From positions 998 to 64,997 of IMG/VR virus record IMGVR_UViG_3300037455_000533: 64,000 nt of DNA; one strand, given 5' to 3'. Position numbers and translations under genes: made by a program. The notes beneath the pieces were generated by a model, which was not told the DNA's origin, did no database searches, and was given only the letters and a program-made list of their open reading frames with translations. Shown here piece after piece: positions 3,721 to 22,147 of this stretch (position 1 is the first letter of the stretch; each line of letters begins with the position of its first letter). This stretch comes from a virus (lineage: Duplodnaviria > Caudoviricetes).

Positions 3721-4734
3721 TTAAGACTCGTTCTCGAGTTCAGCCTGTTTCTCACGAATGATTCTCTTCGCAATCATACGTGCTTCCCTAAACTTAGGAC
3801 CGACAATGTTCGGTTTGCGTAATTGTTCTTCGTATTGTTCTAGTGCTTCGAGTGTCATTGCTCGCATCTCTTCCTCAGTCGCAGCCACAGCTCCACTCTT
3901 GACCTTTTCCTCACGTCTTTCCGCAATCTTTTCCACATCATCAACCCACATCAATTTCTTGCCCAAGAACGCTTCCGCAAGTGGAGAACATAACTTACGC
4001 TTGTCCTTAACGTGTGCTAATGCTCGGCAGAATGCTGAGAATGAACGTGGGTTAATCTCGTGATAAGACTTACGGTCATCATTTTCGTTATACGTGTTCC
4101 ATTCATCTTCCGCAATCTGGTCCAAGAGAGCAAACTTCTGCTCGTTTGTGGCCTCATCAGCAGTATCGATCACATTACCGTTCAAGATGCTGTCCGTTTC
4201 AGTTTCCGTGAGATAGTCCTTATACGAGTCAATGGTGCTAATCACTTCCAAGACCATAAACCTAGACGCCATCGGGCGAATAAGTCTTTCCGTATCATTC
4301 TGGTCATTCGGGTTCATAGCCGCAACAATAACCACCTGTTCAGGAAGTTTCTTATTCAAAGTCGGAATCCTACGCTCAGCCAAAATCGTGAGAAAGGTCT
4401 TAAGCACTTGTGGGTCCGCAGTGTTGAACTCATCCAAGTTCAAGATAATCATCCCGTCTGGGTTCTCATTCGCAAACTCTTCCATTTCCTTGAACCATTT
4501 CTGTTCAATATACTCGAGAACGTTATCAACCGTGTTCACCTGTGGGATACCGTTCACATACTCTTCAATGGTGCTGGAACCAGTCATAGTAATGACCTTA
4601 CACTTAGGAGAACGCATAGCCTCAATCACTTGCGACTTACCAACCCCAGGATTACCCACAAGCAGGATGTTGGTCTTAGACTTGAACGCGAGATTGATAA
4701 AATCTGGTACGTGGTTAATTTTTACTTTCAACAT
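3721..4734 (-). CDS. MoxR-family AAA+ ATPase
   Basis: Walker A GNPGVGKS, Walker B LNLDEFN, AAMNP sensor, RPMASRF arginine finger, INPRS motif. Confidence 0.85.
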   Translation of the reverse strand: MLKVKINHVPDFINLAFKSKTNILLVGNPGVGKSQVIEAMRSPKCKVITMTGSSTIEEYVNGIPQVNTVDNVLEYIEQKWFKEMEEFANENPDGMIILNLDEFNTADPQVLKTFLTILAERRIPTLNKKLPEQVVIVAAMNPNDQNDTERLIRPMASRFMVLEVISTIDSYKDYLTETETDSILNGNVIDTADEATNEQKFALLDQIAEDEWNTYNENDDRKSYHEINPRSFSAFCRALAHVKDKRKLCSPLAEAFLGKKLMWVDDVEKIAERREEKVKSGAVAATEEEMRAMTLEALEQYEEQLRKPNIVGPKFREARMIAKRIIREKQAELENES

Positions 4735-6619: not shown

Positions 6620-6752
6620 TCTGTCTTGCCAACATAAGCGTAATTGGCTAAAATAAGGGCACCGATTTTCGGATCAATTTTTGAGCAAATTCGTTCATTT
6701 TGGATCTGGGGTCTAGTCGCCGCAACTGTATAAGTTTTTGGGGGGTGGGTGG
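6620..6752 (+). other. Conserved boundary element, copy A (promoter-like boxes, CTGTATAAGTTTT, G run)
   Basis: Five colinear blocks shared with 63735-63870 at near-identical spacing; TTGCCA-N17-TAAAAT at 6626-6654. Confidence 0.7.
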
Positions 6753-6757
6753 TATGC

Positions 6758-6787
6758 AAAAATTCCCGCCGCGGCGAGGCGACGGGA
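6758..6787 (-). terminator. GC-rich intrinsic terminator ending the recombination operon
   Basis: Stem TCCCGCCGC/GCGACGGGA, then ATTTTT on the minus strand just after the stop at 6794. Confidence 0.6.
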
Positions 6788-17139: not shown

Positions 17140-17176
17140 ACAGTTGACAAATAAAATAAACTGTAGTAAAATAGAC

Positions 17177-17460
17177 ACATAAGAACATTAACAGTTTCAC
17201 ACAACGGACCACCTTGGACATTGAGGTGGCTCCTTTCAAACGGTAGTCTAGACAGCCATCGTACGACTTTCGAAAACCTTTTCATATTCGAAACACCTTT
17301 TCATAAAAACGGTGGTTGGTAGAGGAAATACGTATTTTGTCACTTTGTACCAATACCTCACAGTACCGTTCTTTCCGTTGTAGAGAGTCTCTTCTTGTTG
17401 TTTTTGACTCCGTGAAAATGGTGAAGCCTTTTACCTCCACTTCTTTATAGTGTTCTTAGG
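17177..17460 (+). ncRNA. Candidate ~280-nt structured ncRNA
   Basis: Promoter TTGACA-N17-TAAAAT (17144-17172); nested helices 17180-90/17448-58, 17195-200/17412-17, 17202-08/17374-80; no ORF in track. Confidence 0.6.
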
Positions 17461-17595
17461 TAAAAACACATTCCTTCCTGCCCCCGCCGCACCCGAGATA
17501 ATTGTCATTCGTTATCTGGAGGGGCAGAGATACACCCGAACCGATTATCCCCCACACTCTAATCTCGGGTGTATTTTTTATGTTATACTGAGGTT

Positions 17596-18066: not shown

Positions 18067-19623
18067 ATGGAAAATAATGTTGTTAACTTAGACGAGCAGA
18101 AGGAGAACAAAGAAGAGTTCTCAAACGCTTCTATGATTGGCGAGGCACACAAACAGCCAGACTATCATCCTGATGCTGACATCTTAATGGAAATGATAAT
18201 GGCAGACGCTTGTGGTGGTGACAACTGTTCTAAATCATTTAAGATCTTGGGTAAGGACCAGATTGCGTATGGCGTTCAGTATCTTGCTGATAACCTACCT
18301 GCAGTTCAGTTCGTTTCTCAGTTTTATCTTGAACTTATTGTCCACGGTGGGCTCGTAGCGAAGGACGCTTCAAACCAGAAGAAACTCGATACTTGGTTGA
18401 AGTCAAAGAACTACACAGGTGAGACTAACGGTAACGTTATCCGTGAAGCACTACACCACTCAATTATTTATGGCTACTCTGGCCTTCGTAAGATTGGTGA
18501 CACCGTTTCGTTTGTCCCATCAAACCACTTCCGTATTTGGAATATGCCAGCAACTATGAAGGGCAAAAATGGCGAGACCAGACCAATCCCTGGTATCCAA
18601 GCACCTATCGTATATGAGATTAAACTTAAAACTGATATGGGTATTGAGAAGAAGGAAGAAGAACGTCCGAACGAATTCTTACCAGACAATGAGAAGTATA
18701 CGCTTAAGTCACTCATCAAAGACAGAGAGTGGATTGAAGGTGTGGACGGTTCATTCTTTGCTGATGACGATAAAGACGGTGCAACCACAGACGATGTCTT
18801 TGTATTTAAGGACGACTTCTGTCACCTCCGTCATTCAGACGATGGTGAATATGGTCGTTCTCCTCTTACAAAGGACCGTCTCAGAACCACTTTGATTGTT
18901 GATTATATTAAAAACGTCATTGATGAGGTCGGCAACGATGGTACAGATTATATGATGTATCTCAAGTCACGAGGTGCTGCTGGCTCATCACTTACTTCTA
19001 TGCTTTCAATTTCAACTGCAGACTCAAACATTAAAGCAGCAGTCGATGGTAAACAAGTTAAAGCTGCTAACGAAAAGCAGATGGAAATTGCAAAGAAACT
19101 CGCAGCTAAACTAAAACGTACCGCTAAAACTCGTTTTGCTATCATCTCACAAGAATGGGTTGAGAAGATTGAGAAGCTCGAAGGAACAGTACACCTTCCA
19201 GAATACCTCTCAATTCTTAATAACGCTAAAGCAACCATTGCAGATATCTATGGTATCCCAGCAATGCTCGCTGGCACAGATGGTGGTGGTTGGTCAACTG
19301 GTATGTCTGCTTTGATTCCATTTACACTTGAACGTACAATCAAGCCATTCCAGCAACGCTACGCAGAACAGCTCTCAGATATTATTGATGCTTGTGCTGG
19401 TATTAAAGGCGGTGTTAAATTCCAAGAAGTCGACTGGTCTGACGAACGTGAACGTGCTGAGATTGATAAGATCAAGGCTGAGACCGAGAAACTTCTCGCT
19501 GAAGCAAACAAAGGTAAGGCAGAAGAACTCAAAGTTGCTAAGGAAACTCGTCTTATGACTAAACAAACACAACAGCAACAAACACAGCCACAAAACAATA
19601 AAAAATCTACACAGAAAAAGTAG
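18067..19623 (+). CDS. Portal protein
   Basis: 518 aa; IREALHHSIIYGYSG, HLRHS, IADIYGIPAMLAG and TIKPFQQRYAEQLS match the portal motif order. Confidence 0.75.
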   Translation: MENNVVNLDEQKENKEEFSNASMIGEAHKQPDYHPDADILMEMIMADACGGDNCSKSFKILGKDQIAYGVQYLADNLPAVQFVSQFYLELIVHGGLVAKDASNQKKLDTWLKSKNYTGETNGNVIREALHHSIIYGYSGLRKIGDTVSFVPSNHFRIWNMPATMKGKNGETRPIPGIQAPIVYEIKLKTDMGIEKKEEERPNEFLPDNEKYTLKSLIKDREWIEGVDGSFFADDDKDGATTDDVFVFKDDFCHLRHSDDGEYGRSPLTKDRLRTTLIVDYIKNVIDEVGNDGTDYMMYLKSRGAAGSSLTSMLSISTADSNIKAAVDGKQVKAANEKQMEIAKKLAAKLKRTAKTRFAIISQEWVEKIEKLEGTVHLPEYLSILNNAKATIADIYGIPAMLAGTDGGGWSTGMSALIPFTLERTIKPFQQRYAEQLSDIIDACAGIKGGVKFQEVDWSDERERAEIDKIKAETEKLLAEANKGKAEELKVAKETRLMTKQTQQQQTQPQNNKKSTQKK

Positions 19624-19660: not shown

Positions 19661-20290
19661 ATGTCTCCAGACACACAAGATATGATGGAAGCCATCAAAA
19701 ACGGTATTGAAAACAACGCTACAGAAGCACCTGCAATGAGTATCGACCCGAAGACTCAGCAAGTTTCTGTTGTTGGCGACCCAAACAAAATCGACGAAAC
19801 TAAAGGCGATTACAAGATTAAGTTTGTTTATTCAGAAGAAGATCTTTCAGAAGATGACAAAGCAAAGATGAAAAAGAATGAGAACGGTGAGTACGAAGCT
19901 GTTATGACATACACAAACAAGCGTGTTAAACCTCTCCACCGTACAAAAGTTGCTATGGTTCTTGCTAAGATCCTAGCCGCTTCAGGTGTTTTGCTTGAAG
20001 ATGGTTCATATACAACTGACACAATCTCCCGCAAGACTGAAGAGATCTTCATAAACCAAGTAGATGACCTTGCAGAGATTGCAAAGATTGTTCTTGATAT
20101 CCCTGAACCACAACTTGGATACATCGATGCTTACGGATTAATCGATTTCTTCCTTCAACTTCTTGCTAATGAGCCAAACATCGTCAAGGAGTCAGCAAGT
20201 TTTTTAGAGCCGTCGTTGATTCAGAGCTTAGCAAAGATGATGATCGAGCAAGAAAAGACAGCCAAGCCAACAAATACTCAGCAAAACTAG
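19661..20290 (+). CDS. Tail assembly chaperone (gpG-like)
   Basis: Contains the T-TTT-TTA slippery heptamer at 20200-20206, leading into an open -1 frame. Confidence 0.7.
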   Translation: MSPDTQDMMEAIKNGIENNATEAPAMSIDPKTQQVSVVGDPNKIDETKGDYKIKFVYSEEDLSEDDKAKMKKNENGEYEAVMTYTNKRVKPLHRTKVAMVLAKILAASGVLLEDGSYTTDTISRKTEEIFINQVDDLAEIAKIVLDIPEPQLGYIDAYGLIDFFLQLLANEPNIVKESASFLEPSLIQSLAKMMIEQEKTAKPTNTQQN

Positions 20291-20619
20291 ACCTATGGTC
20301 AAGTATGGCATACTTCGTAGCGAAGGAGCTTCACAAGCGTCCACTTGATATTCTTACCACGTGGAACTGTGAAGAACTCCTTGTTGCGTATGGTTTCTAT
20401 GCTAACATCCACGCTCGTGAGAGTTATGAGATGATGTCTCCAAAGGATAGAGCACAGCATAAAGATGCAGACGGACGTCCTGCACCTCTACAATGGTATG
20501 ACCGTTGGGCAGTTCTCTTTGTCACACCTGAACAGATGTCAGAACTCGCTAAGGATACTGAGAACAGGACAAACAAAGATGAACTCTCGAAAGCAGCTGA
20601 GATATTCTTTGGTAATTAA
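20200..20619 (+). CDS. -1 frameshift extension of the chaperone (gpGT-like); includes track ORF 20305..20619
   Basis: The -1 frame is open from 20173 to the stop at 20619 (FRAVVDSELSKDDDRARK...LWSSMAYFVAKEL); ATG 20305 has no RBS. Confidence 0.75.
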   Translation, partial: FFRAVVDSELSKDDDRARKDSQANKYSAKLDLWSSMAYFVAKELHKRPLDILTTWNCEELLVAYGFYANIHARESYEMMSPKDRAQHKDADGRPAPLQWYDRWAVLFVTPEQMSELAKDTENRTNKDELSKAAEIFFGN

Positions 20620-20659
20620 AAGTGTTGACATTTTATTATATATATAGTAAGATGGTTAA

Positions 20660-21014
20660 TAAGAGGCTAACAGTCTCCTTGTAATATTTATATGTTACAC
20701 CTACCCATATTGGTAATACTTCTACCAAATAAATGAAGATAGTACATCCACATCGTGTAACAGGTATTGCAAACTAAAGGTTATTTACAATTCATAAGTT
20801 CTATGATTATTATCTTCCAACTTAATAATCAGAAAGATTGAATAAATGCTTATTGCTTATTGTTTAAGAAGCGTATGATTAATCCATACATATTAATGTT
20901 TATCGTGAAAAATGACAAATTATAGTCAAGACAGTAGCACTTAATTGTATATGGTATACACAGATTATCTTTTGCATTAAATAGTCTACTCAGTGCTACT
21001 ACTGTTAGCCCCTT
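20660..21014 (+). ncRNA. Candidate ~355-nt multibranch ncRNA co-transcribed with tRNA-Cys
   Basis: Promoter TTGACA-N17-TAAGAT (20625-20653); closing helix 20661-74/21001-14; at least seven internal helices; no ORF in track. Confidence 0.65.
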
Positions 21015-21017
21015 GAT

Positions 21018-21091
21018 GGCCTTGTGGCAGAGAAGTTATGCAGCGGTCTGCAAAACCGTGTACTCCAGTGCGATTCTGGGCGAGGCCTCCA
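21018..21091 (+). tRNA. tRNA-Cys(GCA)
   Basis: Acceptor GGCCTTG/CGAGGCC plus T-CCA; anticodon arm GCGGT-CTGCAAA-ACCGT; T arm TCCAG-TGCGATT-CTGGG. Confidence 0.92.
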
Positions 21092-21126
21092 TAAATATAC
21101 ACTCCACATTTAATGATATTTCCATT

Positions 21127-21156
21127 AAACGACCTCCATTCCCAGGGTCGTTTTTT
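21127..21156 (+). terminator. Intrinsic terminator after the tRNA
   Basis: AAACGACC/GGTCGTTT stem plus T run. Confidence 0.7.
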
Positions 21157-21183
21157 GGTTTTTAATTATGTTACAAATTATTA

Positions 21184-21212
21184 TTGACAAATAAGCATAG
21201 GTTTGGTATAAT
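21184..21212 (+). promoter_or_regulatory. Sigma70-type promoter of the early small-gene operon
   Basis: TTGACA-N17-TATAAT. Confidence 0.85.
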
Positions 21213-21307
21213 CATTTACAAGGTAAGGCAAGGCGACCTGCGGTAATGAGCAAAGGCCAACCGTCGAAAGAGCTAAGGGAAAGTTAATAAAGAGAGGAAC
21301 GATAAGG

Positions 21308-21574
21308 ATGTTTAAATTTATGTCTAATCGTAAACGCCAGCGTAAGCTTGAGTTCCAAGACTGGTTCGATGAACTAGATGATGAATCTCAGCAAGAAACC
21401 GCTGTCAAATATCTTCGTAAACTCGATAATTTCTCTCTCAAAAGGTTATACGCAGCTGTAGATCTATACAGGAAAGGCGATAACGAATTGAGGAAGGTCA
21501 AAGAGCCAGAAGATGATAAGCCATCTGAAGAACCAGATGACGATACAAATTTCGTTGAAACAAATAATAAATAA
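21308..21574 (+). CDS. Hypothetical protein
   Basis: 88-aa ORF with purine-rich RBS. Confidence 0.7.
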   Translation: MFKFMSNRKRQRKLEFQDWFDELDDESQQETAVKYLRKLDNFSLKRLYAAVDLYRKGDNELRKVKEPEDDKPSEEPDDDTNFVETNNK

Positions 21575-21589
21575 CATAGGAGGCATATT

Positions 21590-22147
21590 TTGAGTGGAAC
21601 TATGGCTGGTGGTAAAAAAGCCGCCGACACCAATAAGTCAAGGTATGGCAAGGACTTCTATAGCAATATCGGTAAAATTGGGGGGTCGAAAGGAACTACA
21701 GGAGGCTTCGCATACGGAGATAATGGCAAGAGATTTGGAAAACTAGGTGGAGCAATGAGCCACAGGTCAAGACAAATTGATATTAACAAGCCATTGAAGC
21801 AGGGGGAAATGGATATCCTGATTAAGTTATCTTACAGGGTACTCGGTACACTTAGATTAAATGGAGTCATAGACGTTGGCGAAGAACAAAAGTATAAGTT
21901 AACGCTATGGGATCTCGCTGGACAGAATGAATGGAAACGAATCTTCACGGATCTTGGAATCGGTTCAGCAGTAGAAATAGCTTGGGTTGTAGTCATAGCA
22001 GACGAGCTACATAAATATAAGAATAAGTTTATACAAGAATATGACACAGGCATCAAGGTTTTGTCTGAAGAAGAACTTGAAGAGTTCAAAAACCTTAACA
22101 ACCTTCGCAAGGCATTCGAGCTTGTGACAGGACGTAAGATTAAATAA
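21590..22147 (+). CDS. KGG-motif (general stress protein-like) N-terminus fused to an unknown domain
   Basis: GGKKAADTNKSRYGKDFYSNIGKIGGSKG...GKLGG; GGAGG RBS. Confidence 0.7.
   Translation: MSGTMAGGKKAADTNKSRYGKDFYSNIGKIGGSKGTTGGFAYGDNGKRFGKLGGAMSHRSRQIDINKPLKQGEMDILIKLSYRVLGTLRLNGVIDVGEEQKYKLTLWDLAGQNEWKRIFTDLGIGSAVEIAWVVVIADELHKYKNKFIQEYDTGIKVLSEEELEEFKNLNNLRKAFELVTGRKIK

Follow-up and report, generated by a model that had tools for sequence, protein, structure and literature searches.

The tRNA-Cys gene of this phage is preceded by a non-coding stretch that is probably expressed as a real, lineage-specific leader RNA and freed from the tRNA precursor. The window (the whole stretch of DNA that was analysed, 64,000 nucleotides in length) takes in nearly the whole of a 64,997-bp IMG/VR virus record in which direct terminal repeats are present, and DNA of this phage is recurrent in bovine gut metagenomes (17 studies). 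The leader lies between a conserved three-gene block, made up of portal, p209 and p104, and a strong promoter at 21184, from which the following genes are transcribed. The gap from the p104 stop to tRNA-Cys is 398 nt in the window, and the leader has a GC content of 29.5% against ~41% for the genome. The unit has a promoter, an ORF-free stretch, a tRNA and a terminator-like hairpin, the leader has no coding capacity, and a contig from an RNA library matches the leader alone.

In the explanation that we favour, a sigma-70-type promoter belonging to the leader would give one transcript of ~495 nt comprising the leader, tRNA-Cys and the terminator. A cut by RNase P between U21017 and G21018 would then free a leader of ~360 nt, both ends of which would be locked by a helix of 14-15 bp with overhangs of ~3-6 nt, and such an end-locked RNA would resist end-dependent nucleases and accumulate. 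We give about an even chance to this explanation taken whole, that is, to an accessory, lineage-specific, non-coding leader RNA freed by RNase P and locked at its ends.

Parts of the transcription unit

The features of the unit and of the block upstream of it are as follows.

18067-19623: portal gene (phrog_16496), first of the conserved three-gene block upstream of the leader
After the portal gene, in the same conserved block: p209 (209-aa ORF) and p104 (104-aa ORF)
20625-20653, + strand: sigma-70-like promoter, TTGACA-17-TAAGAT, 10/12 consensus matches
20655-21017, + strand: leader RNA without ORF, ~360 nt, 29.5% GC
20660-20674 (5′) and 21001-21015 (3′), + strand: strands of the closing helix (minimum-energy fold, inverted-repeat listing, shuffle test)
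20679-20772, + strand: 5′ domain, an 18-bp interrupted stem with three G-U pairs that bears the TTGGTA/TACCAA hairpin
20775-20902, + strand: central variable region with small helices
20933-21000, + strand: 3′ domain, a 9-bp stem bearing two hairpins
Between 21017 and 21018: expected RNase P site
21018-21091, + strand: tRNA-Cys (GCA) with encoded CCA (ARAGORN; Rfam, 49 bits)
21128-21158, + strand: terminator-like hairpin and T run, non-canonical, with a large loop (read from sequence)

This order of parts fits the favoured explanation. Transcription of the leader would be expected to start at ~20658-20661, and the promoter ahead of it is identical in the DNA variant X6. The longest stop-free frame within 20655-21017 amounts to 27 aa. 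It was claimed in the initial annotation that the tRNA-Cys lies 3 nt downstream of the RNA, and this is borne out by a linker of 3 nt (GAT) between the closing helix and the tRNA, with U at -1. The U at -1 and the unpaired state of the linker agree with the substrates of bacterial RNase P, which would be the releasing enzyme. A further claim, that one promoter and one terminator enclose the RNA and the tRNA, stands for the promoter. The terminator is weaker than had been claimed, with a stem of 6 bp (21128-21133 with 21146-21151), and the terminator scan did not call the hairpin because its loop measures 11-12 nt.

Some other readings of the stretch were considered and rejected. The leader does not originate from a decayed gene, as stops crowd every frame. 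An internal promoter at 20784-20813 was dropped on finding that promoter-like sites are no commoner than in shuffles, and in place of iterons or tandem repeats just two-copy repeats of 9-11 nt were found. It may also be noted that a DNA contig of X6 matches from 20624 onward and has unrelated sequence before that point, which suggests that the promoter-RNA unit can occupy another upstream context, here in a different genome of the same sample.

Predicted fold

In the minimum-energy fold the leader is closed by a helix of AAGAGGCTAACAGT (20661-20674) with ACTGTTAGCCCCTT (21001-21014), in which 13 of 14 pairs are Watson-Crick and which brings the predicted start of the transcript together with the final bases ahead of the tRNA. 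It abuts a second helix formed by AGTAGCACT (20933-20941) and AGTGCTACT (20992-21000). Also included in the fold are TGTTACAC/GTGTAACA, TTGGTA/TACCAA, GATTATTA/TAATAATC, GTATG/CATAC, TGAC/GTCA and TGTATA/TATACA. Coordinates and helices are therefore those named in the initial annotation, except that TTGTAA pairs with GGTATTGCAA instead of with TTACAA. The closing helix is far beyond chance (on shuffling the 3′ 30 nt, a single shuffle out of 20,000 attained 13 of 14 pairs), and it would be expected to confer stability on the freed RNA.

Folding of the whole leader gave an MFE of -77.7 kcal/mol and z = -3.28, with 0 of 100 shuffles equally good, and the reverse complement folds equally well (z = -3.42). 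When set against the genome background (363-nt windows, GC-regressed), the leader is at -1.7 SD on the + strand and at -2.4 SD on the - strand. The z values per domain favour the + strand for the 5′ domain (-2.6 vs +0.2 on the - strand) and for the central region (-1.3 vs +0.2), not for the 3′ domain (-1.9 vs -2.2).

Equal folding of both strands would be natural for an element that works at the DNA level. Here a small non-autonomous mobile element would have landed between the promoter and the tRNA, with the closing helix as its terminal inverted repeats, or recombination would have left a scar at this place. The extra DNA, AT-rich and without coding capacity, is bounded precisely by the 14-bp inverted repeats, and the X6 contig joins 20624 onward to different upstream DNA, all of which would agree with such an origin. 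Yet the repeat has no other copy in the phage, there are 0 full-length matches in 301 Acutalibacteraceae genomes or in genome G004, nothing longer than AT can be made out as a target-site duplication, and the contig seen in RNA only would be left unexplained. We therefore consider a DNA-level element improbable. The narrower assignment to a miniature inverted-repeat mobile element was rejected. The repeats are present, but there is no clear duplication, and further copies were found neither in the phage nor in the 301 genomes of the family, which is a candidate host family.

Natural variants of the leader

In its coding flanks the variant X6 is 2-3% divergent from the window, and within 20723-20995 it has only TGA>GAG at 20876-20878 plus one small insertion after each of 20818, 20907 and 20920. 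In X11 there are six substitutions and three insertions, all of them in 20842-20878. X12 has 0 differences over 190 nt (20959-21148), with coding flanks that differ by 4.3% and 2.2%. The substitutions and indels of X6 and X11 are concentrated at 20818-20878, where they break ATTCA/TGAAT, GCTT/AAGC and GTATG/CATAC with no compensatory change. The small central helices are therefore unsupported, and GATTATTA/TAATAATC is the sole solid helix of the central region.

Wherever they are covered, the closing helix, the 5′ stem, GATTATTA/TAATAATC and the 3′ stem are untouched by the variants. The 5′ domain is invariant over its covered parts (20679-20711 and 20723-20772), and so is the 3′ domain (20933-21000) where covered in X6, X11 and X12. 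Judged from these few variants, the long helices appear to be neither supported nor contradicted, and the outer parts of the leader appear to be conserved no less than the genes beside it.

Evidence from RNA libraries

A contig of 342 nt that is 100% identical to exactly 20671-21012 was obtained from the cattle gut metatranscriptome run X5 at a depth of 10.6; the contig gives neither strand, ends nor level. It begins ~11 nt past the expected start and stops 5 nt short of the RNase P site. X5 held no other phage contig on 20000-21700, the flanks 20000-20670 and 21090-21700 being uncovered, which is to be taken as a hint and no proof of absence; a contig bridging the leader into the tRNA was not found in this run either. 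The share of sampled words in X5 was 0.59, equal to the leader's share of the query, and two further RNA runs from a second study had shares of 0.43 and 0.20. Part of the stretch was thus present in 3 metatranscriptome runs from 2 studies, the contig placement coming from X5 alone. In the DNA runs X6 and X12 the flanks are covered at a depth like that of the leader (2-4), and therefore the X5 pattern is unlike contaminating DNA.

The X5 contig gives a hint of a discrete RNA with one end close to the promoter and the other close to the RNase P site. A polymorphism is present at this end, a T being inserted after 21015 in both X6 and X11, and it could alternatively have ended the contig or broken the assembly there. 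On balance, we find it fairly likely that a discrete RNA ending near the tRNA is transcribed. As to the earlier proposal that RNase P would release the RNA with a defined 3′ end, the contig is consistent with release at or near the site, and the defined end goes beyond what a contig can show.

The closeness of the helix to the cleavage site also bears on a reading in which the leader acts in cis and controls the maturation or level of tRNA-Cys, for example by placing a helix 3 nt from the cleavage or through alternative base-pairing between the acceptor strand and the 5′ end, either of which could modulate the access of RNase P. The helix does end 3 nt from +1, pairing of the inverted repeat could continue into the GGCC of the tRNA (16/21), and the linker varies by one T in X6 and X11. 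However, the same tRNA is expressed in relatives whose leaders measure 10-20 nt, Rfam shows no ligand-binding or T-box-like motif, and the RNA contig suggests efficient processing. We regard control in cis as very improbable.

The spacer in syntenic relatives

The order portal-p209-p104-tRNA-Cys is conserved among relatives. In 12 loci with a portal identity of 45-49%, tRNA-Cys starts 10-14 nt past the p104 stop, and the gap is ~20 nt in locus L020 (portal 48%). In L007 (portal 78%) it is ~115 nt and holds a TGTTATAAT element, that is, a -10 of its own, with a leader of ~85 nt that is unrelated to the window leader and folds weakly (z = -1.7). The leader RNA is absent from 14 of the 14 syntenic relatives found, a comparison that covers portal identities of 45-78%; the portal itself has many relatives, P0001-P0020 (61-92% identical) being the closer ones. 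With spacers of 10-20, ~115 and 398 nt, the tRNA position would therefore be ancestral and the 360-nt RNA a recent lineage-specific gain, so that the leader does not appear to be an old partner of tRNA-Cys.

The tRNA-Cys(GCA) of the relatives scored ~49 bits by Infernal in L002, L003, L005 and L006 (e.g. L006 7487-7558), and the same gene was found by blastn in L004 and L008-L013. ARAGORN reported no tRNA in L002-L006, and a joint gathering scan of ten loci listed just two tRNA-Cys loci. The genes that come after the tRNA, p88 and p185, were matched in none of the relatives fetched, and therefore this region is variable. Past the tRNA-Cys of L020, which comes from an Acutalibacteraceae MAG, ~90 nt free of ORFs are enclosed by a consensus promoter and a terminator (6620-6760), possibly a small RNA at the variable site.

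The spread of spacer lengths points to a plastic site, and it is an argument for the view that the leader is a functionless spacer. The extra DNA would then be an AT-rich, promoter-bearing insert and its transcript a mere long tRNA leader that becomes visible in RNA through its tight folding, only the promoter and the tRNA being of consequence to the phage. Agreeing with this are L007, where a -10 element of its own and a leader of unrelated sequence likewise precede the tRNA, the gathering of indels and uncompensated changes at 20818-20920, the lack of a leader homologue in the searches described below and the low GC content. But a terminal helix that brackets the extra sequence exactly is very unlikely to arise by chance, and the outer parts are conserved at least like the coding flanks. 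Also, 65-kb phages rarely retain 360 nt of idle DNA. We consider a spacer of this kind less likely than not.

Search for known families and homologues

A gathering-score scan of the whole window with Rfam 15 matched the tRNA alone. A permissive scan of 20400-21400 (E <= 10) gave, besides the tRNA, only matches of 15-19 bits with E of 3-6, which is far below gathering. The Infernal check against Rfam that had been suggested thus places the leader in no Rfam family, GOLLD (RF01998) and ROOL (RF03087) included, and T-box, ribozymes, 6S, tmRNA and introns likewise gave no match to the leader among the Rfam 15 covariance models.

Homologues of the leader were not found in GenBank phages, whether by DNA or by portal protein, nor in IMG/VR with the portal protein alone, the junction pattern or the downstream p185 protein. 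Patterns based on the tRNA returned only unrelated tRNA arrays from IMG/VR, and a search with the 5′ motif gave 117 chance matches, 0 of them behind a promoter. A relative's contig had a link to just one bacterial family, Acutalibacteraceae; here the 301 genomes and G004 had just chance matches of 19-35 nt to the leader. Using blastn and nhmmer, no leader homologue was found in any of the loci fetched. The suggestion that this is a new class of RNA finds no support here, as a second member is absent from the searches and the syntenic relatives have 10-115 nt at that place.

GOLLD and ROOL are located near tRNAs in phages and, as stated in the initial annotation, they are longer (ROOL has an average of 581 nt and many GOLLD exceed 800 nt, against ~360 nt for the leader). 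Like the leader they are phage-borne, non-coding, multi-branched and often beside tRNA genes, and ROOL was first discovered in data from cow rumen, the habitat of the present phage. The leader differs in being upstream of, and fused to, a single tRNA, and those families span phyla whereas the leader has no known relatives. Going by the covariance models, GOLLD and ROOL are excluded as families, and the parallel is one of genomic habit only.

RNAC and RNAD of phage T4 are likewise phage-encoded small RNAs whose function is still unknown. They lie within a tRNA gene cluster, are excised from tRNA precursors and are much shorter than the ~360-nt leader. They belong to an unrelated phage and host, the leader has no Rfam match, and they are likened to it by description only. 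In E. coli, sponges of the 3′ETS-leuZ type are by-products of tRNA processing that persist and are active in trans, but these come from host operons, as short spacers in a 3′ or internal position, and the leader has 360 nt and lies 5′ of a phage tRNA. By analogy, T4 RNAC/RNAD and the tRNA-spacer sponges may be the closest parallels.

Neighbouring units

Another unit that lacks an ORF and has a promoter and a terminator of its own is present at 17144-17590 (~410 nt, z = -3.85). The promoter at 17144 and the first bases after it resemble those of the leader (TAGTAARAT, then ATAAGA-N3/4-TAACAGT). The 5′ end of this unit pairs with 17448-17461, where the signal is weaker (7 of 300 shuffles). At the same place in L007 there is an ORF-free promoter-terminator unit (4118-4470, z = -5.2) that has no sequence similarity to it. 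In 21184-21307, directly past the tRNA terminator, TTGACA-17-TATAAT forms a perfect promoter that has a TG upstream; between it and an 88-aa ORF (p88) lies a leader of ~95 nt that is fairly rich in GC.

Discussion

Once freed, the leader RNA may have a trans-acting role, for instance by serving as a sponge or decoy to some protein or RNA of the host, and the leader may be a dispensable gene of the moron type; both of these are guesses. A dispensable, trans-acting accessory RNA is weakly favoured over a functionless leader, and that the leader has a function of its own is in itself doubtful. A wider reading would make it the first member of a new kind of phage RNA, closed at its ends, multibranched and ~300-400 nt long, with paralogous promoters and a 5′ motif shared between the leader and the unit at 17177-17590, one of the two being released by RNase P from a tRNA precursor, and serving host takeover or counter-defence in phages of rumen Firmicutes. 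We think this unlikely.

Non-coding RNAs of phages that lie beside tRNA genes (GOLLD, ROOL, T4 RNAC/RNAD) are a standing puzzle. If the present leader is stable, cut by RNase P and has a role of its own, it would be a small and tractable case of tRNA processing that yields a second product, and the gain of the RNA would then be datable inside one phage lineage from the spacers of ~10, 115 and 398 nt. If it is merely a leader, it would show promoter-bearing inserts accumulating ahead of phage tRNAs.
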